Source: an uncultured Eubacteriales bacterium (GTDB taxonomy: Bacteria; Bacillota; Clostridia; Oscillospirales; Acutalibacteraceae). From it: a DNA stretch of 52,720 nt. Position 1 is the stretch's first letter; each line of letters opens with the position of its first letter. Made by a program: the position numbers and the translations under genes. Positions 12,761 through 42,546 of the stretch are shown piece after piece. The stretch is from the NCBI GenBank assembly GCA_934725345.1, contig CAKVBG010000001.1:1-52720 (forward strand), in the 5' to 3' direction. The notes under the pieces are model-generated. The model was not told the origin of the DNA. It saw only the letters and a program-made list of their open reading frames with translations, and ran no database searches.

Positions 12761-12933
12761 TTTATACCACCTTCCTCCTGTTCTACAATGTGAATTGAAA
12801 TAATGTCTTTCTTTTCATGTCCAGTATCACAGAACCTTTTTATACATTCTTCTTTGTTTAATGCATAACAGAAGAATCTGTGTTCTGTGATACTTTCAAC
12901 TTTCCTTTGAAATACAATACAATAGAATATCAC
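12748..12933 (-). CDS. hypothetical small protein (61 aa, GTG start)
   Basis: GTG at 12933 overlaps the recA TGA (GTGA coupling). No internal ATG is available. Confidence 0.45.
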   Translation of the reverse strand: MIFYCIVFQRKVESITEHRFFCYALNKEECIKRFCDTGHEKKDIISIHIVEQEEGGIKWES

Positions 12934-14367: not shown

Positions 14368-17091
14368 TTACCTCGCCATCAAACTACTGTTATATTTCAC
14401 AACTCTACTCAAATACCTTTTCTTATTAAATTCAAGTGCGCCCTGTTCTTTTAAAATATCAATAACTCTACTTGTTACTGCTCTACCTTTACAACGATCG
14501 TAAAAATCATCATAACTTTTAAATGCACCTTTCTTTCTTTCTGCTTCTATTGCTTCTGCCGCTTTGTCTCCTACGCCCTTTATAGTGCTTATTCCTTGCT
14601 GTATTACATTTTCACCATCATATGTTCTAAGACTTGTCTCCACTGTATAATTTACATGCGGTAACATTACCACAACACCCTCTTTCACAGCACATTCACT
14701 GTATTTGTATATATTTGCATCATTCTGTGCATACTTTATTTTTGTATACCAAAACTCTGTCGGGTAATATACCTTATAAAACATCTGGTCTATAGGAATA
14801 AGGGCATAGGCTGTACTGTGACCTTTATTAAAGCCATAGATTAACATACTCGCCCATAAGCTATCAGTTTCCTCTTTATTCATTCCCTCTTTTTTACAGC
14901 CACTATAAAAATCTTTCTTCATTTGTGTAATTATCGGCTTGTATTCTTCTTTGTGCAAGTTTTCTACTTTCTTCATAATCTTCAACATATCAAAAGACTG
15001 TTGCGGTGTAAGGTGTCCAACTTTCTGTGCTACTTCTACCGTTTGCTCTTGATATAACATTGTGCCATATGTTTCTTTTGTATATTTGTAATACGGTGTA
15101 CTTGTATCAACATTTCCACCCATTTTGTTTTTTGCAAACTGTTCATGCATTTTTAACTGTAAAGGGGCAGGACGATTGAGAGCATTTACCGCAATTATAT
15201 CCTCTACACAATCTGCATGGATTGTTTCAAGAATCTTTTTTGGTGTGCTTTTTTCAAACTGAAAAATTCCTTCTGTTTTCCCTTCTCTGAAATATTCCAA
15301 TACCTTTGTATCACTTTCCTCTTCCTCTGTTACTTTGTGCTTTGTAAGCTGTTCTAACTCTTTTAATTCACCCATAGTATTGAGTCCTAACATATCAAAT
15401 TTTGTACAGTTAATATGTTCTAAATCATCTTTGTCAAAACAACTACTTAATGCCCCTGTTTTTCTATCACGCATTATAATACAAGTATAATCACTTATAT
15501 CTGTTCCAACAACTGCAACGCCTGCGGCATGTTTACCGAGATACCTTACTTTACCATACATTTTACAAAAATGTTTTATAATGTTGTCGTGTTCTTCATT
15601 ATATTCTTCTACTTGCTTTCCAGAGCTTTGTAATTCTTCTAAATCAAGTTCCCCATCATGCTCGAATGTTTTTATGTAACTCTTAATTTCTGCAATCTTC
15701 TTTTTGTTTTCTTCTGCTTCATAATAATCAACTTCTTTTGTTGTTTTTAAACCACATACACTTGCAAGGTCATTTACAAGGTTGTCAACTCCATATAAAC
15801 CATAAGAACAAATCTGAACCGCCCTATTCGGATATTTATTTACTACATAGTCAATAACTTCTTGTCTACGTGGTGTCTCAAAGTCTGTGTCAATATCAGG
15901 GAGAGCTTTCTTTTCTTTACGCATAAAACGACTAAAATCAAGCTTGTATTTGATACTGTCTACATCTGTTATACCTATCGCATATGCTACCAAACAATTA
16001 CAAGCTGAACCTCTTCCTTTTCCTACTGCAATGCCTTGTTCTTTCGCCCAATTTATGTAATCACGAACGATTAAGAAGTAATCAGCAAAACCATGGTAGT
16101 TAATAACGTCCAATTCATATTTGCATCTTTCTATATATTTTTTGTTATATTTTCCTTTTTCTTTAAGTCCTTCTTTTACAAGGTGCAGTAGTTCTTTTTT
16201 CCCATCTTCTGTTTTTGGTAATTCCAATTGCAAACCATCTAAAATGTTATCTTCTACTTTATTGTATATTTCTTTCATATTATCCACAAACATTTCTGCC
16301 ACTTGCATACTGTTTTTAAATTTCTTTTTATACATTACTGCAAAACGTTCTGTTATTTCATTCTCTGTTGGCATATAACGTTCACTGTACGTATTCTTTA
16401 CGTCAAGTGTTGTTTTACCAATTTCATGCATTTTACAATACGTGTCGAAATCTTCTTTTCTTCCAAAATGGCTATCGCTTGTTAGGATGCATTTTATTTT
16501 CCGTTCCATTGCTAAATGCATCAATGTGTAGTCAACTTTCTGTTGTGTATGTTTATTATCTATCTTGTAAGGCTGTATTTCAGCATATAAGTCATTTTTA
16601 AAAATAGCCTTAAATTTATCCAATAACTTTCCTGCCGTTTCTTTATTGCCGTTTAAAATGGCTTGTGAAGTGGCTGACACTATACACGCTGTTGTACACA
16701 TTAAACCCTCATGGTATTTTTCTAATAACTTAAAATCCACTATAGGTTTGTAATAGAATTGTTCTGTATTTGCTACTGTCATTATGTGACATAAGTTCTT
16801 GTATCCTTGCAGATTTTTTACAAACAAATTCAAATGATAGTACCTTTTGCTTTGTTCTGTTTTTTTGTTCCAACTTGGTAGGAAATATACTTCACATCCT
16901 AACACTGGCTTTATTCCCACTTCATTACAAGCTTGATAATGTTTTACAAGTCCACTTATTGTTCCATGGTCGCTTATTCCTAAAGCTTTATATCCCATTT
17001 CTTTTGCATATACAGCCAAATCTTTTGACTTTCCAAAACCATCAAACAAGCTATACTCTGTATGCCTATGCAAATCAAAGAAATTTCCCAT
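14368..17091 (-). CDS. dnaE: DNA polymerase III alpha subunit (DnaE-type, compact 907 aa)
   Basis: ATG at 17091 (MGNFFDLHRHTEYSLFDG... = PHP domain); the GTG at 17127 lies at the promoter TSS. Also LGISDHG, a palm/fingers region, and a C-terminal HhH GVGDKAAEAIEAERKKGAFKSYDDF. No OB or tau-binding tail. Confidence 0.85.
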   Translation of the reverse strand: MGNFFDLHRHTEYSLFDGFGKSKDLAVYAKEMGYKALGISDHGTISGLVKHYQACNEVGIKPVLGCEVYFLPSWNKKTEQSKRYYHLNLFVKNLQGYKNLCHIMTVANTEQFYYKPIVDFKLLEKYHEGLMCTTACIVSATSQAILNGNKETAGKLLDKFKAIFKNDLYAEIQPYKIDNKHTQQKVDYTLMHLAMERKIKCILTSDSHFGRKEDFDTYCKMHEIGKTTLDVKNTYSERYMPTENEITERFAVMYKKKFKNSMQVAEMFVDNMKEIYNKVEDNILDGLQLELPKTEDGKKELLHLVKEGLKEKGKYNKKYIERCKYELDVINYHGFADYFLIVRDYINWAKEQGIAVGKGRGSACNCLVAYAIGITDVDSIKYKLDFSRFMRKEKKALPDIDTDFETPRRQEVIDYVVNKYPNRAVQICSYGLYGVDNLVNDLASVCGLKTTKEVDYYEAEENKKKIAEIKSYIKTFEHDGELDLEELQSSGKQVEEYNEEHDNIIKHFCKMYGKVRYLGKHAAGVAVVGTDISDYTCIIMRDRKTGALSSCFDKDDLEHINCTKFDMLGLNTMGELKELEQLTKHKVTEEEESDTKVLEYFREGKTEGIFQFEKSTPKKILETIHADCVEDIIAVNALNRPAPLQLKMHEQFAKNKMGGNVDTSTPYYKYTKETYGTMLYQEQTVEVAQKVGHLTPQQSFDMLKIMKKVENLHKEEYKPIITQMKKDFYSGCKKEGMNKEETDSLWASMLIYGFNKGHSTAYALIPIDQMFYKVYYPTEFWYTKIKYAQNDANIYKYSECAVKEGVVVMLPHVNYTVETSLRTYDGENVIQQGISTIKGVGDKAAEAIEAERKKGAFKSYDDFYDRCKGRAVTSRVIDILKEQGALEFNKKRYLSRVVKYNSSLMAR

Positions 17092-17131
17092 ATTCAATTT
17101 TCCTTTCCTTTTGTTTTCTATTTTCACTTAT

Positions 17132-18235: not shown

Positions 18236-18619
18236 TTAATGTTTTGAAAAGTTAGATTCAAATTTGTTTATACATATACCGCTAAAATCTTCGATATTCA
18301 GAACATAGCCACCAAACTCAATCCATCCGTGTCTGCCTGTTTTGTATACTTCTTTCACAACTTTCATAATATTATCAATTGTTTCCATAACATCTTTCTT
18401 TGATTCTACTGTAATAATTTTTAAAAGTTCTTTGTCAAATTTGTCTTTATTTTCTGTTCTTTCAAATCCAACTTTTTCAGTGTACATTTCTACAAGTTCT
18501 TTATACTTTTCACTATCTTCATCATACTCCTGTTTTATACATTTGTCAAGATTAAATTCTTTTCCTGTATTCTTTTGTATCAGTGACATTCCTATCACGA
18601 TTTCTACTGCTAACTTCAT
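18236..18619 (-). CDS. hypothetical protein (127 aa)
   Basis: ATG at 18619 with a GAGGAAA SD. Overlaps the primase 3' end by 68 nt. Confidence 0.5.
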   Translation of the reverse strand: MKLAVEIVIGMSLIQKNTGKEFNLDKCIKQEYDEDSEKYKELVEMYTEKVGFERTENKDKFDKELLKIITVESKKDVMETIDNIMKVVKEVYKTGRHGWIEFGGYVLNIEDFSGICINKFESNFSKH

Positions 18620-19559
18620 ACATTTTCCTCGTTTCTCTTATACACTTTTTTATTTGTTTTTCATCCATTTCACCGCAATCTTTTATGTTTTCTGGATATT
18701 GAAATCTTATTACCTTAAAAAACTTTTCTAAGTATTTTGTTCCTTTTATTCCACATTCATCATTGTCTAATGCACTTATTACAGTTGTTATACCTTTATC
18801 TTTTAGTTTCTTTGTCTGTTCATCAGATATGTGCCAACCGAGGATTGCAACAACATTTTTTATATGTCCTCTCGTTCTAATTGCTAAGTAGTCCATAAAC
18901 CCTTCACAAATGTATACAACGCTGTTTTCAGAATAGTTTCCACATAATGTTTCACGTTTTCTAAATCCATCATTGTATAGATATTTTCTCTTTTGTTCTA
19001 CTTGCTTATTCATTGTCCTGCCAACCCAACCTTTAAATTCTCCATTATCTAAGATGGGAAACAATACTGGGTAACTTAGACTATAACTTGCCTTACAATG
19101 CCCTATATTAAGTGCTCTGGCGTTAAAACCACGTTTAGCCATATATTCTGTCACTTGCTTTTCTTCTGCCGTTTTAGGTGTATTCCAGTCTGTTTCGTGC
19201 AATCCGTAATAATATGCATATGCTTCTCTTACTGATGTTTTACTACGTTTCTTTCTTCTGTTTCGTGCTTTCACTTGTATGTTTTTTACTTCATTGCTTC
19301 TTACTATTTTTTCAAGTAATACACAACACTGTAAATCATTTAACTTTGGATTTGCAAGTTTTACAAAATCATATGCATTTCCTTGTACACCACAACCAAA
19401 ACAGTAAAAACTTCCTTCTGCTAAATTTACAACCATGCTTGGGTTTGCATCATCATGAAATGGACAAACAATCTTTATTTGTATACTTTCTGTTTCGTAT
19501 ATTAAACCATAATAGATTAAAACTCTTGCTAAATCATTACCATTATACTTCCTCTGCAT
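18552..19559 (-). CDS. dnaG: DnaG-type DNA primase (zinc finger + TOPRIM, no helicase domain)
   Basis: CHC2 finger CPFHDDANPSMVVNLAEGSFYCFGCGVQGNAYDFV. TOPRIM: ICEGFMDYLA and SALDNDECGIKG. Confidence 0.8.
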   Translation of the reverse strand: MQRKYNGNDLARVLIYYGLIYETESIQIKIVCPFHDDANPSMVVNLAEGSFYCFGCGVQGNAYDFVKLANPKLNDLQCCVLLEKIVRSNEVKNIQVKARNRRKKRSKTSVREAYAYYYGLHETDWNTPKTAEEKQVTEYMAKRGFNARALNIGHCKASYSLSYPVLFPILDNGEFKGWVGRTMNKQVEQKRKYLYNDGFRKRETLCGNYSENSVVYICEGFMDYLAIRTRGHIKNVVAILGWHISDEQTKKLKDKGITTVISALDNDECGIKGTKYLEKFFKVIRFQYPENIKDCGEMDEKQIKKCIRETRKMYEVSSRNRDRNVTDTKEYRKRI

Positions 19560-21700: not shown

Positions 21701-21730
21701 ATTATATATCACAAGGGGTTGTTTTGTCAA
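21701..21730 (-). promoter_or_regulatory. sigma-A/sigma-70-type promoter with its -35 inside a hairpin
   Basis: TTGACA(21730-21725)-N18-TATAAT(21706-21701). Confidence 0.7.
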
Positions 21731-21735
21731 CCCCT
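21714..21735 (-). terminator. GC-rich hairpin after the J-domain gene (weak terminator; no U-tract on the minus strand)
   Basis: Minus RNA: AGGGGUUG-acaaaa-CAACCCCU (8 bp). The loop and 5' arm spell TTGACA. Confidence 0.45.
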
Positions 21736-21747
21736 TTTTAATATTTT

Positions 21748-22218
21748 TTATGCGATACAAACTCTGCTAACTGATTCTTTTATAATCTGTGAACCATATT
21801 TTGTTCTAATGTCTGCCATTGTTGTTTTACCATAGCTTCTTGTTACTTCTTCTGGATTATGCCAATACCACATCTTTTTCTTACTCGCCCATTTAAAACC
21901 ATTTGCTTTGAGTTCTGTTTTGCATCCGTATGTATTACCGGATACCCAAATCCATGAACCACAGATTTCTATATCAACATTCAGATTGATAATACTGTTA
22001 ATAACATTTCTTAACATTTCATCTTCTGCCATGTTATATTTTCTTTTGTTTTCTGATGTATCACTGTTTTTAAGGACTTTAAAAAGTTCCTCATATTCAA
22101 CATTGATGATTTTAATTGCTTCATCCGAACCACCGTTATCTGGATGATTTTCTTTTACAAGTCTTTTGTATTCTTTTCTTAACTGCTCCAATGTTTCAAT
22201 GTTTTTAAAATATTTCAT
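21748..22218 (-). CDS. J-domain (DnaJ-like) co-chaperone protein
   Basis: LEQLRKEYKRLVKENHPDNGGSDEAIKIINVEYEELFKVL contains the HPD tripeptide in a J-domain helix II/III context. C-terminus: GSWIWVSGNTY..LKANGFKW. Confidence 0.85.
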   Translation of the reverse strand: MKYFKNIETLEQLRKEYKRLVKENHPDNGGSDEAIKIINVEYEELFKVLKNSDTSENKRKYNMAEDEMLRNVINSIINLNVDIEICGSWIWVSGNTYGCKTELKANGFKWASKKKMWYWHNPEEVTRSYGKTTMADIRTKYGSQIIKESVSRVCIA

Positions 22219-22605: not shown

Positions 22606-22651
22606 ATAAGCTATATACTACTATAACTTAATATAATAATATATAGCTTAT
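22606..22651 (-). terminator. AU-rich 12-bp hairpin closing the orphan cassette
   Basis: Perfect inverted repeat 22606-22617 / 22640-22651 (ataagctatata) with a 22-nt loop, followed on the minus strand by AUUUUAUGUUAUAAAAUUUUUUU. Confidence 0.45.
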
Positions 22652-22656
22652 AAATA

Positions 22657-23406
22657 CTACTTATTCTTTTTATGTTCTTTCATTTGTTTTACTTCTTTGT
22701 TTGTGTATTCTTCATTGTATTTCTTTTTGTATTTCTCATGGTATTTATCTTGCATATTGTGTATGCTTACTGCATTGTAACCTGTTCCGTTAAGCTGTTC
22801 ATGCATCCTGTTTATCTTTTTAAGCTCTTTTGTTACATCTTCTACAAGTGTACTTATATATTCTGCATCAGCAACTAAACCAACGTTTATACACTTCTGC
22901 CACATTTCTTCATAAAGTTCTTTTGTTTCTTCTTCCCATTCTTTGTATTGTTCTATTGCACTTTTTACAAATTTAGGTAGAACATTATCATTTACATCTT
23001 CTGTTGTGTATTTACTCCATTCCCTTGGAATAAACTGTATCACTTCTACTTGGTGCACTGGAATAAGCTTTTTATGAATATTTATATACTTGTGATGTAA
23101 CTTTCTTCCCTCTGCTACTTCGCACATATATTGATATTCTAATTTGCGTTTGAACCCTTGTAAACCGAGGAAACAAAAATAATCTGCAAGCTGTTCATGG
23201 AAGCATAATGCTTTTTTCATGTGTTCATCAAGCTCTAAATATATTTGTTCCGCACTTTGTTCTTTTTCACGTTTATTTATGTTCATTCCTGTGTATGTCC
23301 TTTGTATATTTTGTGCTTCATTCTTTCTACTCCATGGCTGTTCCTCTTGTACATTTGTTTGTGTTACTGTATCCTCACCATATTTTACACCATTTCTTTC
23401 ATACAT
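22657..23406 (-). CDS. cassette ORF5: hypothetical all-alpha protein (249 aa)
   Basis: ATG at 23406, 8 nt after AGGAGG (the track start at 23415 is GTG). Basic N-terminus, then long predicted helices (FHEQLADYFCFLGLQGFKRKLEYQYMCEVAEGRKLHH...). Confidence 0.6.
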   Translation of the reverse strand: MYERNGVKYGEDTVTQTNVQEEQPWSRKNEAQNIQRTYTGMNINKREKEQSAEQIYLELDEHMKKALCFHEQLADYFCFLGLQGFKRKLEYQYMCEVAEGRKLHHKYINIHKKLIPVHQVEVIQFIPREWSKYTTEDVNDNVLPKFVKSAIEQYKEWEEETKELYEEMWQKCINVGLVADAEYISTLVEDVTKELKKINRMHEQLNGTGYNAVSIHNMQDKYHEKYKKKYNEEYTNKEVKQMKEHKKNK

Positions 23407-23418
23407 TTCTAACACCTC

Positions 23419-23799
23419 CTAGGCTGGTATTGTTGGAAAGTTAAATCCTGTTTTACATAATTCACACGGATTTACTATAAATGCATTTGTATCTGTTGCT
23501 ACGTTTGTGTGGTATACCCTTCTGCTTCGTAACTGGTCTGCATGAACATTGTTACCGCATTTTGTTCTAAGGATATATTGTGCTGTTCCCGTACCAAAAG
23601 TTATCGCTACTGTGTCTACACTTGTTACGTCCGGAATACTTTGTGCAATACAGATACATACCTTTTCTTTGTTACTATATGTTGCTTGTGGAATATTTAA
23701 AACAAGAACATTGTCTGTTAATGTTACACTATTTGTTTTTACAAAATGTGTACAACCGCCACAGCCATATCCACCATTATTATATAAATTACATGGCAT
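23419..23799 (-). CDS. cassette ORF4: hypothetical Cys-rich protein (126 aa, 8 Cys)
   Basis: ATG at 23799 with a GAAAGGTAGG SD. N-terminus MPCNLYNNGGYGCGGC, then VCICIA and PCELC. Confidence 0.6.
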   Translation of the reverse strand: MPCNLYNNGGYGCGGCTHFVKTNSVTLTDNVLVLNIPQATYSNKEKVCICIAQSIPDVTSVDTVAITFGTGTAQYILRTKCGNNVHADQLRSRRVYHTNVATDTNAFIVNPCELCKTGFNFPTIPA

Positions 23800-23831
23800 A
23801 TTTATTACCTACCTTTCTAAACGTTCTAATT

Positions 23832-23861
23832 AAACGAATAAGGGCGACTATAAGCCGCCCC
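23832..23861 (-). terminator. internal attenuator/terminator between cassette ORF3 and ORF4
   Basis: Minus RNA: GGGCGGC-uuaua-GUCGCCC (7 bp, one G-U) followed by UUAUUCGUUU. Sequence-similar to the terminator at 10044-10072. Confidence 0.55.
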
Positions 23862-23926
23862 TACAAATTCATCACGCATAAGCGGAAAATCTCTTAAATC
23901 TTAAAATACAAGCTTCTACACGTATC

Positions 23927-24619
23927 CTAGCATCCACAGCCATTTGCATAAGCTGTACCACACCGAGAATACATTTGTGCGCTTTCATATGGACTGCAAG
24001 TCTGATATGCCGGAATTGGTGTAGGTCTAAGAGTTGCAATCAGTGTTGCGTTCTGTGCCTGCTGACTTAACTGGAAGTTTGCAGTCTGTAACTGGTCGCG
24101 CAAACTCTGAATTTCATTCTGTGTCATTAACGCTCTTGTAGCATCTCCATCTGCTTTGATTGCATTTACAATATCACAAGTATTTCTTGCATTTTCATAT
24201 CTTACTGCATCAATGCTTCTTTGTGTTGTACAGCAACAATCAGAAAGTTGTGTTGCAAGTGCATTTGTATTCTGCATACCTGCTACTGCTACATTGTTAA
24301 TAGCTTGCTGTGTTCCATTGAACCCATTGAGTAATGATGTATTTACTGCATAGAATCCATCACATAAACCACTTTCCAAACCATTCAGTTTATTCATTAC
24401 TGCTTGGTTGTCGAAACCTCTCTGAACTGTGCTATCTGTATATGCGCTTGCTGTACTGTTCATTCCATTACCTCCCCAGTTGCCAAAGTTTCCACCCCAT
24501 GCAAGAAGAAAGAAAAGGAAGAAAATCCAACTGCCGTTCCCATCTCCAAACATACCATCATTGTCTCTTCCTAGTGCTAATGCATCTGCTACACTAAGTC
24601 CATTTCCATCCATACTCAT
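23927..24619 (-). CDS. cassette ORF3: Gly/Asn/Trp-rich single-pass membrane protein with 9 Cys (230 aa)
   Basis: ATG at 24619 with an AAGGAGG SD. Contains GDGNGSWIFFLFFLLAWGGNFGNWGGNG, DCCCTT, a coiled-coil-like QNEIQSLRDQLQTANFQLSQQ and the C-terminus NGCGC. Confidence 0.65.
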   Translation of the reverse strand: MSMDGNGLSVADALALGRDNDGMFGDGNGSWIFFLFFLLAWGGNFGNWGGNGMNSTASAYTDSTVQRGFDNQAVMNKLNGLESGLCDGFYAVNTSLLNGFNGTQQAINNVAVAGMQNTNALATQLSDCCCTTQRSIDAVRYENARNTCDIVNAIKADGDATRALMTQNEIQSLRDQLQTANFQLSQQAQNATLIATLRPTPIPAYQTCSPYESAQMYSRCGTAYANGCGC

Positions 24620-24667
24620 AACAAGTACCTCCTTAATTATTATTTATATAAACCTTGTGGTTTATAC

Positions 24668-24844
24668 CTACTTAACACCAAACATTTTCTTAAATTGCTG
24701 AAATTGCTTTAACGCCTGTTGCATATCAATTCCACGCTGTCTACACAAATTTTCTGCTGTTTGTTCTAATTGCTGTTCATTCTTTCCTTGTGCCATTTGT
24801 TGCGCTCTCTGAAATAATGGATTGCTATTAAAGTTTTTGTTCAT
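24668..24844 (-). CDS. cassette ORF2: Q-rich helical small protein (58 aa)
   Basis: Below the track cutoff. ATG at 24844 with an AAGGAG SD, overlapping the ORF1 end. Translation: MNKNFNSNPLFQRAQQMAQGKNEQQLEQTAENLCRQRGIDMQQALKQFQQFKKMFGVK. Confidence 0.5.
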   Translation of the reverse strand: MNKNFNSNPLFQRAQQMAQGKNEQQLEQTAENLCRQRGIDMQQALKQFQQFKKMFGVK

Positions 24845-25268
24845 CTTCCTTCACTCCTTTTAATTCAAGAATTTGATTTTTTAATATTTCTATAGCCTGT
24901 TCAAAATCACTTTGCAGAACATAGTCTGCATTTTGTTTTTGTTCTTTTATGTTTTGTTCTTGTAATGTATATACCTTTAATTCTGCACTACCATCTAGCA
25001 TTATTTGTTTTGTGTATATCCTTTTATTTGCAATATCTGTAAATACAAACATACTACCATCTAGGTCTATCATTGCCGCTTTCGCTTCATCATAACTTGA
25101 TACTGGTCTACCTTTTAACATTTGTATGTTTTGCTGTTGCTGATTTTGCATCATGTTCTGGTTATACATATTGTTATATTGTCCTTGTAACTGTTCCATT
25201 CTATTTTGTGTTAATTGCTGTTGGTATGGACTCATTCCAACCCCATATGGCGTATAACTGTACATCAT
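24828..25268 (-). CDS. cassette ORF1: protein with an N-terminal Q/N/M-rich low-complexity region (146 aa)
   Basis: ATG at 25268 after AAGGAG (the track start at 25274 is GTG). Contains YQQQLTQNRMEQLQGQYNNMYNQNMMQNQQQQNIQ, then a globular part and a C-terminal coiled coil. Confidence 0.65.
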   Translation of the reverse strand: MMYSYTPYGVGMSPYQQQLTQNRMEQLQGQYNNMYNQNMMQNQQQQNIQMLKGRPVSSYDEAKAAMIDLDGSMFVFTDIANKRIYTKQIMLDGSAELKVYTLQEQNIKEQKQNADYVLQSDFEQAIEILKNQILELKGVKEDEQKL

Positions 25269-25288
25269 CTTCACTCCTTTCTGTTATG

Positions 25289-25318
25289 ATTATATTGTAT
25301 CACACATATATTATGCAA
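25289..25318 (-). promoter_or_regulatory. sigma-A/sigma-70-type promoter of the orphan cassette
   Basis: TTGCAT(25318-25313)-N18-TATAAT(25294-25289). Confidence 0.65.
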
Positions 25319-25355
25319 TGTTCCTACAAAGTGCCTACTTAGTTACTTTTTAGTG

Positions 25356-25385
25356 TAATAAAAAAGGAAGGTCAAATGACCTTCC
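25356..25385 (-). terminator. strong intrinsic terminator ending the head-tail operon
   Basis: Minus RNA: GGAAGGUCA-uu-UGACCUUCC (9 bp) followed by UUUUUUAUU. Abuts the stop of CDS 25385-25618. Confidence 0.85.
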
Positions 25386-25618
25386 TAAAACGCTTTTCCA
25401 ATCTTCATTAGAATTTTCCTATGTTTCTTTTTGATTGTTGTTTCCGACATTCCTAATGTATCGGCAATATATAGCAAGCTCTTTTCTTCTTTGTAATGCA
25501 TCCATAGAATTTGCTTTTCTTCTTCTGATAACATAGTTTGTTCTAACAGATTTTCAAAATCTTTTACGCTTGTTATTTCTCTTAATTTCTTTCTTGTTTC
25601 ACTGTTTGCTTTATCCAT
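25385..25618 (-). CDS. sigma-70 region-4-like HTH protein (77 aa)
   Basis: ATG at 25618 (ATGGATAA overlap with the upstream stop). LSEEEKQILWMHYKEEKSLLYIADTLGMSETTIKKKHRKILMKI follows the sigma region 4.2 / LuxR-type HTH pattern. Too short to contain region 2. Confidence 0.6.
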   Translation of the reverse strand: MDKANSETRKKLREITSVKDFENLLEQTMLSEEEKQILWMHYKEEKSLLYIADTLGMSETTIKKKHRKILMKIGKAF

Positions 25619-25751
25619 TTTTCCCACGCCCCATGTATTTACCGCAAACTGGACAACGTTTTGTACCACCTTTTGCTTTGCCCGATTTAGAAACTTTTGT
25701 TCTTGTTACCCTTGTTGACTTTGTAACGTGTATGCTTGCTTTAGATGACAT
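25611..25751 (-). CDS. very basic small protein with a single CxxC (46 aa)
   Basis: Below the track cutoff. ATG at 25751 with a GGTGGTGAG SD. Translation: MSSKASIHVTKSTRVTRTKVSKSGKAKGGTKRCPVCGKYMGRGKNG. Confidence 0.5.
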   Translation of the reverse strand: MSSKASIHVTKSTRVTRTKVSKSGKAKGGTKRCPVCGKYMGRGKNG

Positions 25752-25894
25752 TATTTATTCTCACCACCTTCATTGTGAGTTGCATTATCATTATACTGAT
25801 TTCCGTTTACATCATTATATTCAGCATTTGCATTATCACCTTTTGTATCTATATCTACATCTTTAGTAGTGTCATATGTTTCCACATAATCAAA

Positions 25895-26047
25895 TTAACT
25901 TTCATAATAAACAAACCCTGCATAAAATATAACTGCTTCTAAAAACATTATGATAATCAATAATACAATGATTTTATCTTTCTTTCTGTTCGATTTTGTG
26001 TACTCCCTTTGTACATCAATCAAGATTCTTTCTGTTTCGTTTTCCAT
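25895..26047 (-). CDS. small membrane-anchored protein (50 aa) ending at an in-frame TAA followed by 47 more open codons
   Basis: ATG at 26047 with an AGAGGAA SD. MENETERILIDVQREYTKSNRKKDKIIVLLIIIMFLEAVIFYAGFVYYES, then TAA (25895-25897). The same frame stays open to 25752. Confidence 0.5.
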   Translation of the reverse strand: MENETERILIDVQREYTKSNRKKDKIIVLLIIIMFLEAVIFYAGFVYYES

Positions 26048-26067: not shown

Positions 26068-26991
26068 TTATTTATTTTTTTCAAGAACAACTTTCCATTT
26101 ATATGTTCCAATAAATGATGATGTATCTGTTTCTGCTCTTACGCTTATCTCACTGTCTAATGTTGCACCAACTACAATATCATATGCTTTTAACGCTCCA
26201 CAGTACCATGTTCCGATTCTCCCAACTCCATTTCCAGAAATCTTTGAAACACCAACTGATTTAATATAACAATTTGTCTTATCAAATCCCGAAGGATATT
26301 TAAAACCATACGCCATATATAAACCACCAGATTCCGTTGTCGTATTTGTTACAACTGCTGTTTTATTTTCTACGTCTGTTTTTAAATCATCTATTTGCTT
26401 CTGTAAACTTCCTGCAACGTCAGATGTAAGCTTGTTCTTAATATCTGAAAACCAGTCATCAAACTGTCCTTTTAACTGGTTAAACATTCCTTCTGCATCT
26501 AATTGGTCTATCATTCCTGTCACAAAACCGCATAGCTCTGTATTTGTTCTTGTATCTTCTATACGACTTGATGTTATTGTTGATGCACCAACTTCGACTG
26601 TTATTCTTGCAACAACCAAATCATATACAGAACCGCTTCGTTCTGGCTGTCCTGATGGAACATTTTCTCTTTTTCTTGCATATATTTTTCTATTTGCTTT
26701 GTCTAATGTAATAGTTATTAAATCTATGATTGATGAGCTTGTTGTATTTGCACTTAATGTCATATCCATATCTTCTGTTAATTCATACCAATACCCATTT
26801 ATAAATGCGCTTCCTGCTTTTAATGTCACTATCAATCCACTTTTAGGAACTACATTTAAGCCACTTCCTTTGTACACTCCATTTCCGATAAACTTTGAAA
26901 AGAATGTGGCAAAACTTGAAGCATCATATGACCTGTCATACGTTTCATCGGCTTGCTTTATTCCATTAAAAAATCCATAATTTTCTGCCAT
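26068..26991 (-). CDS. tail fibre / baseplate upper protein-like structural protein (307 aa)
   Basis: Last large gene of the tail operon; AGGAGG SD. The N-terminus FFSKFIGNGVYKGSGLNVVP...GSAFINGYWYEL...DLVVARITV resembles the conserved N-terminal domain of siphovirus fibres. Confidence 0.5.
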   Translation of the reverse strand: MAENYGFFNGIKQADETYDRSYDASSFATFFSKFIGNGVYKGSGLNVVPKSGLIVTLKAGSAFINGYWYELTEDMDMTLSANTTSSSIIDLITITLDKANRKIYARKRENVPSGQPERSGSVYDLVVARITVEVGASTITSSRIEDTRTNTELCGFVTGMIDQLDAEGMFNQLKGQFDDWFSDIKNKLTSDVAGSLQKQIDDLKTDVENKTAVVTNTTTESGGLYMAYGFKYPSGFDKTNCYIKSVGVSKISGNGVGRIGTWYCGALKAYDIVVGATLDSEISVRAETDTSSFIGTYKWKVVLEKNK

Positions 26992-27002: not shown

Positions 27003-28517
27003 CTAATTTGTTAGCAAATCTTCTGTTGGTATATAAAATGCTATAAAATTTATTCTTATACTTCCATTTTCTAGCACTCTATCAAATGTCGCAAAACAAT
27101 TGTCACCTTCCCATGATGCACCCGTTATATGTACACCAGAAGCTTGTGCGTCACCATTCATTATTAGAACAACATAATTATGTGTGCTGTCTGCTGTTAT
27201 TCCAAATTTACTGTCGATGTCTTGTTTTGTAAACATCTTTACCGAGTCATTGTTTATTCCGTGAAATGTATAAGAACCTTGCTTAGACATCTTTTCTCTT
27301 GTTTTTTCTTTGTTATCAAGAACTCTTATAGATATTTCTGCATTTTCTATACGCTTAATTGCTATATCTGTTTTATTTTGTATGTTTTTCTTGTATGTTC
27401 CATATTCTATTTCGATATCAATGATTTTCAATGAATCTTGTTCTGATACAGTAACACCTATAATTTGTGCATCCATTATTATATTAAATTCTGTATCTTT
27501 TACAGTAACCCAATCACCGACATTGTAATCTTTCCTAAATTCATATTTTTCACTTCTCACTGTTGCGCTATATGTTTCAGTTACATTATTTTCTAATGCT
27601 TTTTCATTTGCTCGTTTCTTGACTTCTATGTCATATTGTTCTTGTGTGAGGTTACTTCCATTTACACTATCACTTTGTATATCTCTTGCATCTATCCATA
27701 ACTCTGAACGATTTAAACCACTATTACTGATTGAATCACTTTCATTTATATCAATTTCATACCATTTTCTTTTTGTTCCCTCTCCCTCACCTGCAACATA
27801 AGCAACATTTTTCATTTGTTCCACATCACGTTCATATGATGTTCTATTTATATTGCTAAGTTGCTGTGAAAAAATTACAACACTATTATTTTCTGCATTT
27901 TGTATTCTTCTGTCTATGCCACTTTTTATAAATACATTCCAAAGTTTTACATTTGTTTTATTGCCATTGTTATCTTCACGTGGTTCGCCTATGCTTGGAT
28001 ATACTGATACACCTAACTTATCACTTTCAAGACATTCTTGTATTTCATCCCACAAATAACCACCAGTAACTTGTGTATCTATTTGTGTCAACTTTGTGTT
28101 TTGCGATATTTTATTTACAATATTCATTTTTAAATAACGTTTACTATTTACATTACTTGTATCAAAACATTCTTCTATAAGTGTTTTAATATATTCTGCT
28201 GTTGTTCCTTTAAAAGTTATTGTTTTATTTATAACTCTCTGTGTAAGTATGAATGGCGCTAAACGTCCAGTTATTGTTATCGTTTTATCATATTCACTAT
28301 CGCTATCCTTTTGTATTTTATCTACCTTGCCTATTGTATATAAATCAAACATAATGTAATATTGTTCTGTTTTGTCAAATAGATAAAAATTGCTTTCTGT
28401 TAATTTTGCTATTACCTTAAACGTTCCTATTTCTCTAAAACGTTCCTCATACTGTGAAAATGTATATTCTCTAATTTGATTAACAAAATTAAAGTTGCTA
28501 TTTAATACTCTTAACAT
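27003..28517 (-). CDS. tail-associated (Tal-like) baseplate hub protein (504 aa)
   Basis: Position immediately after the Dit-like gene in the TMP-Dit-Tal order; appropriate size; GAGAGG SD. Confidence 0.5.
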   Translation of the reverse strand: MLRVLNSNFNFVNQIREYTFSQYEERFREIGTFKVIAKLTESNFYLFDKTEQYYIMFDLYTIGKVDKIQKDSDSEYDKTITITGRLAPFILTQRVINKTITFKGTTAEYIKTLIEECFDTSNVNSKRYLKMNIVNKISQNTKLTQIDTQVTGGYLWDEIQECLESDKLGVSVYPSIGEPREDNNGNKTNVKLWNVFIKSGIDRRIQNAENNSVVIFSQQLSNINRTSYERDVEQMKNVAYVAGEGEGTKRKWYEIDINESDSISNSGLNRSELWIDARDIQSDSVNGSNLTQEQYDIEVKKRANEKALENNVTETYSATVRSEKYEFRKDYNVGDWVTVKDTEFNIIMDAQIIGVTVSEQDSLKIIDIEIEYGTYKKNIQNKTDIAIKRIENAEISIRVLDNKEKTREKMSKQGSYTFHGINNDSVKMFTKQDIDSKFGITADSTHNYVVLIMNGDAQASGVHITGASWEGDNCFATFDRVLENGSIRINFIAFYIPTEDLLTN

Positions 28518-28518: not shown

Positions 28519-29478
28519 TTACATACCTCTCACATTAAAAAATCTTTCTGTATACTCTACAAATACTTCTACATTGTTTTTGCTCTGTTCATCTACTTCA
28601 TAAGAATAATAACTTTGTCCTCTTAACACTTTAAACAATGTACTTTCTAATGAAAGTAAACCTATTATGGATTCTTCCTCTCCTGTTCCAGAATGATGTA
28701 ATATTATGTCTTCTTCTCCTGTTTCTGTATTTATAATTATACTATCACCATCTAAAATTGTCAACCCATAAAAAGATATTTTTTCATTTGTTTGTATATT
28801 GTAAATAGCAGGATTTATCACATCACCGCCAACTGCTTTAATTGTTATTTTTGCACCAACTTCTATGTCTCCAGTATTTTCCATAGGTACGCTTGTTCTT
28901 TTTGCTATATCACCGAATACAACATATTCATCTGTTTTATCTTCTGTTAATACTAACGGAAATGTTAATTTTGCATCTGTATGCGCAAATTGTACCATTT
29001 TTGTTTCTTTCGCAAATAAAGGATTATAACATTCAAATTCTAATGTAAATAAACAATATACTTCACTGTTTTCACTTTCTTCTGTACTATATTTTGGCGG
29101 CTGTGTTGGTCTTGCTTTTAAGGTATATTCTCCTGCTTTTATGATAACATCTTGATATATCGATATAATTCTATCCAGTTCAATTTTGTTATCATTTATT
29201 TGTTCTTTTTGTTCAGATAAATATTCTTCCCACGTATTTCCTACTGGATTCATACCTTTTGTATCTGCTATAACATATCCAACTATAGAAAGTTTCCGTG
29301 TTCCTACTGTAATTCCTTCTAATGTTTTCCCTATTTGAAATGGAACTCTATAAGTTTCCTGTTCCACTGTAGGAGAATCCCAATCAATAGAATTTAATAC
29401 ATATTTTCCATTTCCGCTTTTATTAAGTTCTAATTCTTTTCCGGTAATTGTATTTAATATAACAATGGAATCTATCAC
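28519..29478 (-). CDS. distal tail protein (Dit)-like (319 aa, GTG start)
   Basis: Directly downstream of the tape measure gene. GTG at 29478 follows a GAAGGTGG SD. Confidence 0.5.
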   Translation of the reverse strand: MIDSIVILNTITGKELELNKSGNGKYVLNSIDWDSPTVEQETYRVPFQIGKTLEGITVGTRKLSIVGYVIADTKGMNPVGNTWEEYLSEQKEQINDNKIELDRIISIYQDVIIKAGEYTLKARPTQPPKYSTEESENSEVYCLFTLEFECYNPLFAKETKMVQFAHTDAKLTFPLVLTEDKTDEYVVFGDIAKRTSVPMENTGDIEVGAKITIKAVGGDVINPAIYNIQTNEKISFYGLTILDGDSIIINTETGEEDIILHHSGTGEEESIIGLLSLESTLFKVLRGQSYYSYEVDEQSKNNVEVFVEYTERFFNVRGM

Positions 29479-29493: not shown

Positions 29494-32349
29494 CTAAATT
29501 CCATATGCCAATTCTTTCTTTGCTTTTTTCATCTGCCTAGCATATTCATAAGGACTAGGCTGTGTGTTATAGAAGTTAAATGTATCACCGCCCGTACTAC
29601 TTGCATTTACGCCCTTACTATAAGCTTTGTTTTCTTGTGCTGTTAATACTCTTTCACCCTTGTGCAACTCTGCTATATATCCATTATACGGAACATAGTC
29701 AAGACCATTCGCATGGCTACCTTTTACACTACTTGCCGCACTCTTTGCATCATCAGCACCAGAAACAATGTTTTTAAAACCATCTACAATACCAGAAACA
29801 AAGTCACCAATGCTATCAGCAAAATCTGATACCCAACCGAGAATACTATCTCCAATGCTTTTAATACCATCCCATAACTGGTTAAATGCGTCCCTGCCTG
29901 CGCTATACAACCTAGAGCCTAATTCGGATACTTTGCTAGGAATTTGCGTTAATATAGACCAAATATTAGACGGTAAATTGCGTATTATATTTAGTACGTT
30001 TGTCAGAAAACTTTGCATAGCACTGCGTCCTTGTGATATCATCTGACTGCCCCATGTTACTACATAGTTAAATGCACTTACAAGCCATTGCCAAATAGCA
30101 CCCGGCAATTGTGCAAAGAAAGCAACTACATTGGATATAAATTGTGGTATAGCTGTTGCCGCCCACGATAACAAATTAGAACCAAACAAATATATATACC
30201 CTATTGCTTCTCCTATAATATATCCTATATTATATGGTAAATTCTGGAAAAATGCTGTAACATTGGATATAAATTGTGGAACTGTTACATTTGCAAAATT
30301 ATTCAGTCCATTCGGTAATGTTTCTGTAAAGAATGTTATAATACCATCAAATGCACCTTCTATAGCATCTATTGCACTATCTATAATACTAGGTATTGTA
30401 CTTGTGAAAAATTCTCTGAATTTATCTGCTACCCCATCCAGACCAAATGCTTCTAAAATATTTGCTCCTATCTCTCCAAATATTGCAATAATATTTGTAA
30501 CAAAACCTAAAGCAAGCTCTACGATAGAATCAAATATTCCTGTCAAGCCATCTTTTACTTTTTGCCAATCTCCTGTGAATACACCGATAAAAACATCAAG
30601 TACAGAAAGTATTGTGTCAAACACATTTGAAAGGACATCAACTACTGTTTTAAACGCACCAGAAAATATAGGTGCTATGATATTGCATAAACCAACCCAT
30701 GCAACTTTTATTATATTTGCGACGGTAATAAATAAGGGAGCTATCTCTAACAGCCTTTCTTTCATGCCATTGAAAAAGTTCATAACAACACTTAATAATT
30801 CTTTAAATATTGATACCATTGAATTTCTGAAATCTTCATTTGTTTTCCATGCTGTTATAAATACAGCCGCTATACCTGCTATTGCCGCAACTACCGCACC
30901 AATAGGTGAAAGAACAACTTTTAAAACGTTACTCATTATTGACACATTCTTAGTAAATCCCATTGCACTAAGAGCGGCATTATTCATTTGTCCAAAAAAT
31001 ATACTTGATATATGAGATATACCATCAAACACCGCTGAAATATTTCCAAACACTTTAAATAGTTTAGAACCTATTAACATTATTGGTGCTATTGCGGCGG
31101 CTATTAAACCAAATTTTACAATTAAATCTTGTTGCGATTCTGATAAGCTGTTAAATTTTTCTACAAGCCCTGTTATCCATTCTGCTAATTCTCTTATATA
31201 TGGCGTTAATCTTTCTCCTATTGTTATGCCTGCACTCTCTAAAGCACTTTTTAACAACGTTACTGCACCACCTAAATTATCTTGCATTGTATCAGCCATT
31301 TCTTGTGACGCACCTGTACAATTCACTATGCTTTCCGATAATTTGTTATAATCTTCATCGCTAGCGTTTATTATAGCAAGCAATCCAGACATTCCCTCTT
31401 GCCCTGCTATCATAGCCGCATAACTGGCTTTTTGGTCTTCTGTCAATCCAGACATAGAACTTCTAAGCTGTTTTAATATATTATCTAAGCTTTTCATAGA
31501 ACCATCTGAATTAGTAACACTTATTCCTAACGCATCCATTGCTGTACCAGATTCTTTTGTCGGTTTTACAAGTCTTGTAATCGTGCTTCTTAATGCCGTT
31601 CCTGCTTGTTCCCCTTTTATTCCTGCATTTGCCATTAAGCCTATTGCGACTGCTGTATCTTCTATGCTGTAACCCATTGCTCCTGCTATTGGTGCAACAT
31701 ATTTAAAAGTAGCACCCATTAACGAAACATTTGTATTACTTCGAGAACTTGCTTCTGCCAAAACATCTGAAAAATGTTCTGCATTACTTACTTCTACATT
31801 ATATCCATTTTTTAATACTTTTGTTGTTCCATCAGCGGCGAGCCCAAATGCTGTCATAGCATCTGTTACGATATCTGATACTGTTCCTAAATCCTCTCCA
31901 CTTGCGGCGGCAAGGTTCATAACACCAGAAATACTATTCAGCATATCCTTTGTGTCCCAGCCTGCCATTGCCATATATTTGAAAGCTTCGGCACTTTCTG
32001 TTGCACTAAATTTTGTTTTAGCGCCCATTTCTATTGCTTTATCTCTTAACTGTGTAAATTGTGTCCCTGTTGCACCGCTTATCGCTTTTACTTCGGACAT
32101 TGCACTATCAAAGGTACTTGTTACTTTTACTGCCGCTGTTCCAATTCCTAATAGTGGTAATGTTACGCTTTTTGCTAATCCACTTCCTACAGTATTTAGG
32201 GCACTGGAAAATCCTTTAAACTTTTGTTCTGCTGTCGAGCTTTTATCTCCAAATACCTTTAAATCGTTGTAGGCACTTGCGAAACCTTTAGAGAATTTAG
32301 AGGTATCTAATTCGAGGTAAGCTATAGCAGAACCCATATTTATTGCCAT
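29494..32349 (-). CDS. tail tape measure protein (951 aa)
   Basis: Follows the chaperone pair. The N-terminal core MAMAGWDTKDMLNSISGVMNLAAASGEDLGTVSDIVTDAMTAFGL is typical of tape measure proteins. Long Ala/Gly/Ile-rich helical body with an internal 44-aa duplication (PQFISNV.AFF). Confidence 0.85.
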   Translation of the reverse strand: MAINMGSAIAYLELDTSKFSKGFASAYNDLKVFGDKSSTAEQKFKGFSSALNTVGSGLAKSVTLPLLGIGTAAVKVTSTFDSAMSEVKAISGATGTQFTQLRDKAIEMGAKTKFSATESAEAFKYMAMAGWDTKDMLNSISGVMNLAAASGEDLGTVSDIVTDAMTAFGLAADGTTKVLKNGYNVEVSNAEHFSDVLAEASSRSNTNVSLMGATFKYVAPIAGAMGYSIEDTAVAIGLMANAGIKGEQAGTALRSTITRLVKPTKESGTAMDALGISVTNSDGSMKSLDNILKQLRSSMSGLTEDQKASYAAMIAGQEGMSGLLAIINASDEDYNKLSESIVNCTGASQEMADTMQDNLGGAVTLLKSALESAGITIGERLTPYIRELAEWITGLVEKFNSLSESQQDLIVKFGLIAAAIAPIMLIGSKLFKVFGNISAVFDGISHISSIFFGQMNNAALSAMGFTKNVSIMSNVLKVVLSPIGAVVAAIAGIAAVFITAWKTNEDFRNSMVSIFKELLSVVMNFFNGMKERLLEIAPLFITVANIIKVAWVGLCNIIAPIFSGAFKTVVDVLSNVFDTILSVLDVFIGVFTGDWQKVKDGLTGIFDSIVELALGFVTNIIAIFGEIGANILEAFGLDGVADKFREFFTSTIPSIIDSAIDAIEGAFDGIITFFTETLPNGLNNFANVTVPQFISNVTAFFQNLPYNIGYIIGEAIGYIYLFGSNLLSWAATAIPQFISNVVAFFAQLPGAIWQWLVSAFNYVVTWGSQMISQGRSAMQSFLTNVLNIIRNLPSNIWSILTQIPSKVSELGSRLYSAGRDAFNQLWDGIKSIGDSILGWVSDFADSIGDFVSGIVDGFKNIVSGADDAKSAASSVKGSHANGLDYVPYNGYIAELHKGERVLTAQENKAYSKGVNASSTGGDTFNFYNTQPSPYEYARQMKKAKKELAYGI

Positions 32350-33024: not shown

Positions 33025-33642
33025 CTATACGACTGCAATTCCACTTTCTTCCACGCTTTGCTGTTCTACGGTATATTCTGTTAAGTTAGGTAACTGCTCT
33101 ACATACTGTATTGTATATGGCGCTTGTCCTGTTTTTGGCGCACTGTTAATCGTGTACTCTGGAACTCTGAATACATCATCTTCTGTATTGATTGTAACTG
33201 GTGTTCCTTGGCAATTCGGATATGTTATCTTCTCATACATTGTAATCTGTCCAGATGCATCATATACGGCTGAATAAGCATCAAGCTCGAATATCTCGCC
33301 TTTTGTATTTTCTCCTGCTTTTGGTGGTGTATATTTAAGTGTTGTTCCACTTCCTTCTACTGTTCCACCTTGGAAAATTTTCACAAGCTCTGGAATAAAT
33401 ACATTGTCTGTTAATGTAATCTGGTGTCCGGTGATTGTTGTTGTGCTAGGCTTTTGTGCTAACAATTTTCCCAACTTTACAAGTTTAATAGCATCAACTG
33501 TATCTGTTTGTGGTTCTACTGCAATCTTATTAGCTGTATCTACTGCAATTTCCATCCCACTATCTTCTGTGCCTGTTCTTACTACAACAAGTGCAACGTC
33601 TATAGTAGGAATACCTACAGCTTTCTTTTTTGTTCTTGGCAT
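33025..33642 (-). CDS. major tail protein (205 aa)
   Basis: Position upstream of the chaperone pair; strong AAGGAG SD; size and beta-rich composition typical of siphovirus tail tube proteins. No sheath gene is present. Confidence 0.6.
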   Translation of the reverse strand: MPRTKKKAVGIPTIDVALVVVRTGTEDSGMEIAVDTANKIAVEPQTDTVDAIKLVKLGKLLAQKPSTTTITGHQITLTDNVFIPELVKIFQGGTVEGSGTTLKYTPPKAGENTKGEIFELDAYSAVYDASGQITMYEKITYPNCQGTPVTINTEDDVFRVPEYTINSAPKTGQAPYTIQYVEQLPNLTEYTVEQQSVEESGIAVV

Positions 33643-42008: not shown

Positions 42009-42061
42009 TTGCCTTTGAACCTCCTTATCTGCTTATTTAAGACATTTTAATTGTTTAACGG

Positions 42062-42545: not shown

Positions 42546-42546
42546 T

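Follow-up and report, generated by a model that had tools for sequence, protein, structure and literature searches.

The stretch of DNA analysed here, which we call the window, comprises 52,720 nucleotides of contig CAKVBG010000001.1 (assembly GCA_934725345.1) from an uncultured Eubacteriales bacterium, and matches to PHROG families identify an essentially complete siphovirus-like gene set within it. The G+C content is approximately 0.26-0.37 and every gene of the window lies on the minus strand, to which all coordinates below refer unless another strand is named. A cassette of five genes, termed here ORF1 to ORF5, sits precisely at the junction of the late genes with the first early promoter and has a G+C content (0.355-0.368 over 23-25 kb) slightly above that of most of the genome. 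An initial annotation, made from the sequence alone, had described these as five tightly packed orphan genes of no recognisable family. All five reading frames are indeed present, and Pfam, NCBIfam and PADLOC gave no significant match for any of the five products, nor was there a significant match to a solved structure. The genes are not orphans, however: ORF1, ORF3 and ORF5 fall into PHROG families, there are more than 7,600 relatives of ORF3 and 842 clusters of ORF1, and the genes occur together as a syntenic module. A megablast search of the cassette region against GenBank phages gave no match. From the sequence comparisons described below we conclude that the window copy is an ordinary member of a conserved, portable and separately regulated phage module. 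To our knowledge, and in the literature that we searched, neither this module nor the conserved attenuator within it has been described before.

ORF3 (23927-24619; 230 amino acids) is the anchor gene of the module. It matches phrog_16490 (E 1e-28), a family without an assigned function, and it has more than 7,664 related clusters at E <= 1e-3 in a large protein database, none of which is named or carries a Pfam domain; a scan of IMG/VR with ORF3 gave at least 598 confirmed loci. The protein is made up of an acidic N-terminus, a hydrophobic segment flanked by tryptophans, a Gly/Asn/Trp-rich linker, an N/Q/A/T-rich region containing a CCC motif, a coiled-coil-like stretch towards the C-terminus, the sequence RPxPxPAY and a Cys-rich tail (GCGC). 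A single hydrophobic helix had been noted in ORF3 in the initial annotation; a hydrophobic stretch is certainly there, but at only about 12-14 residues it is a weak candidate for a transmembrane segment. The CCC motif is invariant across 16 diverse ORF3 members that include those of crAss-like phages and of viruses with an archaeal host on record, and the Gly-rich segment is likewise invariant in relatives from crAss-like phages, from Bacteroides phage C3_41T2LP and from viruses recorded with a Methanomassiliicoccales host. An AlphaFold model of the ORF3 monomer was unusable, with a predicted local distance difference test (pLDDT) score of 43. Profile matches of the C-terminal part in the PDB were weak, none was significant and all were to coiled coils.

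The two genes that precede ORF3 are also widespread. ORF1 (24828-25274) would encode 148 amino acids, or 146 from the ATG at 25268, which lies 5 nt after a GGAG sequence and by this ribosome-binding-site spacing is the likelier start. The protein has a disordered head rich in Q, N, M, Y and P (Q, N and M together account for 55% of residues 1-55), a small beta domain (GRPVSS...IYTKQ...DG) and a C-terminal amphipathic helix; it matches phrog_21718 (E 2.6e-8), another family with no assigned function, and its own family comprises 842 representative clusters. ORF2 (24668-24844; 58 amino acids), the start of which overlaps the end of ORF1, is small and helical and has two conserved motifs, NP..(R)A..M..G and A.NLC.Q.GI. 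The extreme composition attributed to the cassette proteins is borne out, since the Q+N fractions of ORF1 and ORF2 exceed those of all the 71 window ORFs with which they were compared, with ORF3 ranking third, and ORF4 ranks third for Cys. An ORF1 homologue is found 5' of ORF3 in 109 of 119 loci and ORF2 lies between the two in 88 of the 119. No significant or informative match was obtained when the PDB was searched with an ORF1 profile, and ORF2 likewise gave no informative match; its apparent similarity to transcription activator-like effectors was rejected as an artefact, as the very low E-values were the sum of some 20 repeat matches, each with an i-Evalue above 48.

When co-occurrence and synteny of the five genes were searched for, as the initial annotation had proposed, the same order was seen to recur in many phages and metagenomic loci. 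It can be written as ORF1-ORF2-ORF3-[small beta protein]-[helical or disordered protein], and it is found in Clostridium perfringens phages, in Dulem viruses and in many metagenomic phages. Close relatives, with 86-97% identity in ORF3, have the arrangement regulator-ORF1-ORF2-ORF3-ORF4-ORF5 exactly as in the window. The five genes are complete in Dulem virus 36, where they lie 3' of the receptor-binding protein gene, and the C. perfringens phages CPD1, HMD-PC1 and 17DYC carry ORF1-4 together with a shorter relative of ORF5, between antirepressor and recombination genes. The ORF1-ORF2-ORF3 trio persists at only 31-47% ORF3 identity, including in 32 loci from bacterial genomes or metagenome-assembled genomes (MAGs). 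The MAGs are labelled Clostridia, Lachnospiraceae, Oscillospiraceae, Bacilli, Gastranaerophilales, Absconditabacterales and Verrucomicrobiales, and one isolate is Lachnospira intestinalis. In these diverged loci the gene after ORF3 encodes either of two small beta proteins, and next comes a gene for a protein of 150-310 amino acids. That the five-gene synteny holds across very different phages is an argument for taking the cassette as one functional unit. Two database proteins (P0347 and P0355) are in-frame fusions of an N-terminal part from an ORF1 homologue with a C-terminal part from an ORF3 or ORF5 homologue; by their sequences these look like either natural deletion variants or assembly chimeras.

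Relatives of ORF3 are also present in many crAss-like phages, in Bacteroides phage C3_41T2LP and in two viruses with a Methanomassiliicoccales host on record, and the crAss-like and Bacteroides phages have a recognisable version of the module. In the crAss-like phage cr271_1 an excisionase-like helix-turn-helix gene lies 5' of the ORF3 relative and five genes lie 3' of it, coding in turn for a 114-residue beta protein, a 162-residue protein, an 85-residue R/Y/G-rich protein, a DUF7841 protein (E 5.5e-35) and an HExxH protein. By eye, the 162-residue protein has an ORF1-like architecture, consisting of a beta domain and a C-terminal coiled coil. C3_41T2LP similarly carries a DUF7841 gene and a gene annotated as a PolyVal metallopeptidase. 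In one of the viruses recorded with a Methanomassiliicoccales host (L085, Caudoviricetes sp. vir215, 3152-5759), the ORF3 relative is located just 3' of genes for a reverse transcriptase and a tail protein, an arrangement that looks like a diversity-generating retroelement.

The position after ORF3, which we call slot 4, is occupied in the window by ORF4 (23419-23799; 126 amino acids), a protein that is all-beta in its model and has a Cys/Gly-rich N-terminal extension. Its family comprises 201 close clusters and a further 33 of the C. perfringens-phage type, and the conserved features are C13, C16, C48 and the motif ADQ(I/L)RSRR.Y. The C-terminal CxxC is not conserved across the relatives, and a four-Cys zinc site joining the two termini was therefore dropped. 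The AlphaFold model of ORF4 (pLDDT 66, predicted template modelling score 0.58) has eight strands. When it was compared with BFVD using Foldseek, the best matches were uncharacterised homologues from its own family (TM 0.66-0.75), and these were followed by many proteins annotated as tail fibres, tail-collar fibres, collagen-like fibres or hyaluronidase fibres, at E 1e-4 to 1e-2; the matches to fibre proteins have TMq 0.44-0.55 and a probability of approximately 1, for a query model that is itself of moderate confidence. In the PDB nothing was found below E 0.1 with Foldseek, and a profile search was also without significant match. The model in addition matches a crAss-like virus protein in BFVD that carries DUF7841, and the 114-residue protein of cr271_1 described above has the same length as the cr271_1 entry matched by the ORF4 model.

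An iterative search across the loci showed that slot 4 is exchangeable, being filled by the ORF4 family in 63 loci and by a protein resembling the BclA C-terminal domain in 50. These BclA-like proteins match Pfam BclA_C (E 4.7e-7 and 8e-5), and their profile matches F-BclA-CTD (PDB 9H38) at E 3.9e-4 and BclA at 0.05-0.2. The C-terminal domain of F-BclA is a trimeric tumour necrosis factor (TNF)-like jelly roll that forms the fibre tip of an endospore appendage (PMC12357932). The phage proteins resemble the C-terminal domains of BclA and F-BclA (PDB 1WCK and 9H38), which tip the fibres of the exosporium and of endospore appendages, in being small, stand-alone beta domains with a similar C-terminal strand; in contrast they have no collagen-like repeats, and some of the phages that carry them infect hosts that do not sporulate. 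The fold is a general one for trimeric fibre tips and is no proof of a spore role. An hhalign comparison of ORF4 with the BclA-like set gave a probability of only 0.5%, so that the two slot-4 families have no detectable relation.

The last gene, ORF5 (22657-23406), occupies what we call slot 5. Its mechanically called start is a GTG at 23415; ribosome-binding-site spacing favours the ATG at 23406, and this agrees with the length of 249 amino acids given in the initial annotation. ORF5 matches phrog_17879 (E 2.6e-4), which again has no assigned function. When PDB sequences were searched with an ORF5 profile, ferritins took the first four places, with E-values from 1.6e-3 to 8e-3 and an aligned length of just 45 residues. 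The similarity covers helices A-B, with the motif FxGLxGFxxxxxxQxxEE shared; however, the iron-site EExxH of ferritins aligns with E-V-A-E in ORF5 and is not kept. Pfam gave no match for ORF5. Residues H70, E158 and E194 are invariant in the ORF5 family and could form another site. The protein, which is predicted to be helical, is a possible helper or chaperone. Across the loci slot 5 holds the ORF5 family, an R/Y-rich family, or a protein with an R/Y/G/D-rich disordered head and a C-terminal DUF7841 domain (Pfam E 1e-14 to 1e-30). No link among the three was found with hhalign, and a search of the PDB with a DUF7841 profile gave nothing significant. Slots 4 and 5 are linked by one crAss-like protein, an apparent gene fusion, that carries DUF7841 and also matches the ORF4 model. 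Next after slot 5, in 35 loci, there is often a small HExxH protein, whose family weakly matches the gene of C3_41T2LP annotated as a PolyVal metallopeptidase (hhalign 62%, E 7.5e-5). The window has no DUF7841, HExxH, R/Y-rich or BclA-like gene.

These observations bear on the proposal in the initial annotation that the products resemble cross-linked spore-coat or exosporium proteins and might modify the spore or cell surface of the host. Some spore-coat proteins are ferritin-like, as ORF5 weakly is, and the Q-rich and Cys-rich composition, the BclA C-terminal-like proteins found in slot 4 of some 50 related loci, the Tyr/Arg-rich proteins in slot 5 of relatives and the many carriers from Clostridia all point in the same direction. 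None of the five window proteins, however, matches a coat or exosporium family, such as those of the CotY/ExsY, CdeC/CdeM or BclA type, in Pfam or NCBIfam; the likeness that does exist in slot 4 belongs to proteins to which the window ORF4 is unrelated. Furthermore, the carriers are not restricted to phages of spore formers, as relatives occur in crAss-like and Bacteroides phages, in viruses with an archaeal host on record and in Verrucomicrobiales and Gastranaerophilales MAGs, the hosts of which do not sporulate. It is mainly this host range that leads us to regard a spore-specific role as highly improbable.

The cassette borders were examined for signals of separate transcription. Three hairpins were found where the initial annotation had placed them, with fold z-scores of -4.4 to -5.1 against shuffled sequences. 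The first, at 25386-25365, has a stem of 9 bp, 5 of them GC pairs, followed by a U-run (-14.6 kcal/mol, z = -5.1); its position is kept in relatives while the stem sequences differ, and it is predicted to end the late (tail) operon and the sigma-region-4 gene described below, insulating the cassette on its upstream side. The promoter reported previously, with TTGCAT (25318-25313) and TATAAT (25294-25289) separated by an 18-nt spacer, can be read directly at 25289-25318. It overlaps an extended -10 element, TG-a-TACAAT (25302-25294), that is kept in diverged relatives, most of which have the form TGnTAnnnT approximately 25-30 nt 5' of the ORF1 ribosome-binding site. As a generic promoter scan of the window showed no enrichment over shuffles (28 found, 26 expected), the support for this predicted promoter comes from its conservation. 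At the other end an AT-rich hairpin of approximately 20 bp with a U-run (about 22651-22606; -22 kcal/mol, z = -5.0) presumably acts as the cassette terminator, and an equivalent long hairpin with a U-run and a different sequence lies 3' of the ORF5 homologue in relatives. The earlier picture, in which the cassette is insulated, is transcribed separately and contains an attenuator-like hairpin, is strengthened by the conservation of the promoter and hairpin positions in relatives.

Directly 5' of the cassette, as the last gene of the late operon, is a gene for a 94-residue helix-turn-helix protein (25385-25669) that consists of little more than sigma-70 region 4 and is RinA/ArpU-like (Pfam Sigma70_r4 E 1.8e-8; phrog_36 E 4.9e-14), although its NCBIfam RinA/ArpU matches are weak and fall under the curated cut-offs. 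A sigma-region-4-like homologue lies 5' of ORF1 in many distant loci, and in the crAss-like phages cr271_1 and cr116_1 the regulator position is occupied by the excisionase-like helix-turn-helix gene. It is possible that this protein is a dedicated regulator of the cassette. A motif resembling GATACTTT is present at 25327-25334 (minus strand), and in most relatives, L008, L012, L013, L016, L024 and L028 among them, such a motif lies 17 or 28 nt 5' of the cassette -10 box, where it may serve to bind an activator; the short motif RYACTTTK was not enriched across the window (35 found, 37 expected).

A two-hairpin element lies between ORF3 and ORF4. The small hairpin UCCGCUUAUGCGUGA (23886-23872) precedes a GC-rich, terminator-like hairpin with a U-rich tail (23864-23838; z = -4.4 against shuffled sequences). 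Because a MAFFT alignment of the element did not register well enough to allow a covariation test, hairpins were counted per gene gap. Of 91 distinct loci, 78 have a GC-rich hairpin in the gap after ORF3 (median 104 nt), with a T-rich tail in 62 of the 78; the corresponding counts are 0/67 for the ORF1-ORF2 gap, 5/69 for ORF2-ORF3 and 0/54 for slot 4-slot 5. The conserved position combined with stem sequences that vary by lineage fits an intrinsic terminator or attenuator. In many lineages (beyond the window in L001, L002, L096, L098, L106-L112 and L117) a small hairpin with an invariant terminal UGA lies a few bases 5' of the GC-rich one, and its stem pairs as CGC/GCG, CCC/GGG, CCUC/GAGG or CAC/GUG according to lineage. 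These differences look compensatory, and because the stems differ between lineages we suggest that the small hairpin is a conserved RNA motif. No Rfam family was found in the cassette region. The element at 23838-23886 is probably an attenuator or a stabiliser of the mRNA 3' end.

The module varies in its position in the genome. It is often 3' of tail or tail-fibre genes, as in the window, Dulem virus 36, L047, L062 and L101. In a group of phages typified by L066 (with L071, L078, L079, L082 and L083) the head operon contains the entire module, preceded by the portal and minor head protein genes and followed by those for the scaffold and major capsid proteins, and a scan of the L066 locus, the only one of the group so scanned, gave no promoter or terminator flanking the module.

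Taken together, these features lead us to favour a tentative reading, which we hold to be possible rather than probable, in which the cassette is a widespread, portable phage module that builds a fibre-like assembly of a stalk and a knob. ORF3 would be the stalk subunit, forming an oligomer, probably a trimer, that would be held together by the C-terminal coiled coil and the cysteine clusters (CCC and the terminal GCGC), and its Trp-flanked, hydrophobic and Gly-rich N-terminal segment would serve as an anchor to a membrane leaflet or to a hydrophobic socket in the virion. ORF4 would be the exchangeable distal knob, replaced in other phages by the BclA/TNF-like jelly roll, and ORF1, ORF2 and ORF5 would be helpers, either adaptors or assembly chaperones. 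By reading the sequences no N-terminal signal peptide was seen in ORF1, ORF2, ORF4 or ORF5, and on this account the assembly is expected to be cytoplasmic. Transcription would start at the module's own sigma-A-type promoter, perhaps under the control of the adjacent small helix-turn-helix protein, and the hairpin after ORF3 would either make ORF1-3 more abundant than ORF4-5 or stabilise the ORF1-3 mRNA; operons in which a main subunit is encoded ahead of minor ones are common. The gene order and its conservation, the RNA hairpins, the resemblance of the ORF4 model to other folds and the sequence features of ORF3 are shown, whereas the oligomeric state, binding partners, location (virion or membrane) and ligand of the assembly are inferred.

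We favour the stalk and knob because both slot-4 families appear to have folds like those of fibre tips, because different phages carry different knobs in the way that they carry different fibre tips, and because the module is often 3' of tail-fibre genes or inside the head operon. The A/G/N/T/Q-rich composition of ORF3 and the failure of its monomer model also fit an intertwined shaft, and such failures are to be expected for intertwined fibre shafts. The accessory fibres of phages that have separately encoded tips and chaperones (side tail fibres, head fibres and collagen-like fibres with knob domains) are among the closest comparisons. The ORF4 model resembles the end domains of annotated tail fibres, the type of knob is swapped, a helper-like gene lies 3' of the knob and the module often follows tail-fibre genes. 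The module differs from them in having no sequence homology to characterised fibres, in a stalk with a hydrophobic Gly-rich N-terminus and Cys clusters, in its disorder-rich partners, and in having its own promoter, insulation from the late operon and a place in the early region of several phages. The suggestion of a novel virion decoration, made in the initial annotation, is close to the reading that we favour.

Several observations weigh against a fibre. There is no homology to any characterised fibre protein, and the ORF4 model on which the comparison depends has a pLDDT of 66 and no PDB match. A fibre with one stalk to one knob would need no attenuator, and it is hard to see where disordered proteins rich in Q/N or R/Y, or the small HExxH peptidase of relatives, would fit into one. 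A strong and conserved terminator parts the cassette from the late operon and its host-type promoter lies beside early promoters, which is unexpected for a virion part, and in the C. perfringens phages, Dulem virus 39, C3_41T2LP, L048 and L114 the module is found among early, recombination or lysogeny genes. Moreover, it moves among phages annotated as siphovirus-, podovirus- and myovirus-like, and because the carriers span these virion types, attachment to a specific virion site is hard to explain.

Much of the same evidence would suit a non-structural complex at the cytoplasmic membrane of the infected cell, in which ORF3 would insert its short hydrophobic segment and bring in ORF4 and ORF5 as well as ORF1 and ORF2, which are disordered. 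Such a complex might serve to exclude superinfection, to tether phage processes, to time lysis or to take over the host. The membrane is the one partner that all hosts share and would fit portability across phage types and host phyla, and the module's own promoter, its insulation from late transcription, the early promoters alongside it in the window, its early-region location in several phages and the helix-turn-helix gene upstream in many lineages are in keeping with this role. The tryptophans flanking the hydrophobic core of ORF3 resemble an interfacial belt, and the variants P0347 and P0355, if real, suggest that the module is dispensable. On the other hand, the hydrophobic stretch spans just 12-14 residues and is not flanked by Lys or Arg, and the L066-type module appears to be co-transcribed with head genes. 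The exclusion and immunity functions known to us are single small proteins and not conserved units of five or six genes, and a PADLOC search for anti-phage defence proteins at E 0.1 was negative for all five products. The lysis pair of the window, an endolysin (41004-42008) adjoined by a gene for a holin-like 77-residue protein (42062-42295), lies elsewhere, and with these genes 16 kb away the idea that the cassette is itself a lysis cassette was rejected. We hold a membrane complex to be only slightly less likely than the stalk and knob.

A third explanation is that the capsid carries the proteins and ejects them together with the DNA, ORF3 being a membrane pilot or channel and its partners acting early in the new host. 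The L066-type module lies directly 3' of the genes for the portal and a MuF/gp7-like minor head protein, the Gly-rich hydrophobic segment of ORF3 resembles a fusion peptide, and related modules carry the small HExxH protein with its weak match to the C3_41T2LP metallopeptidase gene. However, tape measure, Dit and Tal, the set with which siphoviruses already achieve membrane penetration, are all present in the window phage, and its cassette lacks the HExxH and DUF7841 genes, shows no homology to known ejection proteins and is insulated from late transcription. We judge ejection to be improbable.

Morons, which are autonomous units of promoter, gene and terminator found inserted into the genomes of phages, provide a further comparison. 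Like them, the cassette has a predicted promoter of its own, a predicted terminator on each side and a variable genomic position, as well as a slightly higher G+C content and apparent natural deletion variants. In contrast to morons it has five or six genes in a conserved order together with an internal attenuator, and it is conserved over very large evolutionary distances and not sporadic. We would entertain, as a plausible idea that still falls short of an even chance, that the module is a new multi-protein system of gut phages organised around ORF3, present across Bacillota and Bacteroidota phages and possibly archaeal viruses and unlike characterised phage systems, in which ORF3, as a protein of a new kind with its short hydrophobic, Gly-rich anchor, invariant CCC and coiled coil, would nucleate a membrane- or particle-bound assembly with swappable beta knobs, disordered partners rich in Q/N or R/Y and, in many relatives, a small metallopeptidase, the expression of which would be tuned by the attenuator. 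Nothing useful was found in the literature on phrog_16490, on DUF7841, on the host strain of the Bacteroides phage or on the proteomics of C. perfringens phages, and no proteomics of a carrier was found.

The remainder of the window is consistent with a siphovirus-like phage. PHROG matches identify a terminase (48153-49535), the endolysin, a portal (39203-40768), a major head protein (35322-36356), a tail tube (33025-33642), a tape measure (29494-32349), Dit (28519-29478), a minor tail protein (27003-28517) and a fibre-like protein (26068-26991), and on the early side a primase (18552-19559), a DNA polymerase (14368-17127) and a UvsX-like recombinase (12930-13853). Strong sigma-70 promoters precede the early and replication genes at 22563-22536, 22292-22265 and 21730-21701; the last of these has a perfect consensus and overlaps a call for a plus-strand terminator-like hairpin (21713-21736). 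The first sizeable early gene (21748-22218) codes for a protein that matches phrog_15863 (E 1.4e-45) and has a weak N-terminal DnaJ (J-domain) match, below the Pfam cut-off; a similar gene lies 3' of the cassette in close relatives. The interval from the fibre-like gene to the sigma-region-4 regulator (25611-26047) holds three small ORFs, of 50 amino acids with one strongly hydrophobic segment, of 44 (acidic) and of 46 (basic, with CPVC), the last overlapping the mechanically called start of the regulator ORF. The lysis genes (41004-42602) are situated between large unassigned genes and the portal gene, not 3' of the tail genes, and include one for a 105-residue protein (42285-42602) with, by eye, one membrane segment and a coiled coil. 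Two large proteins, of 594 (43057-44841) and 626 (45630-47510) amino acids, are encoded between the terminase and lysis genes; the former has no PHROG match and the latter matches only PHROGs with no assigned function. A protein encoded at 51454-52320 matches phrog_842 (beta-glucosyl-HMC-alpha-glucosyltransferase; E 7.7e-71), which hints that the phage modifies its own DNA with sugars.

Thousands of gut phage genomes carry this gene set, and its recognition as one conserved unit makes a single experimental target of proteins hitherto scattered among the hypothetical, a target that offers a regulator gene upstream, an RNA element within and parts that can be interchanged. Carriers that can be cultivated are at hand in the C. 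perfringens phages CPD1, HMD-PC1 and 17DYC and in Bacteroides phage C3_41T2LP. As a fibre, the module could account for host-independent adhesion of gut phages; as a complex at the membrane, it would represent a new way for phages to manipulate cells.

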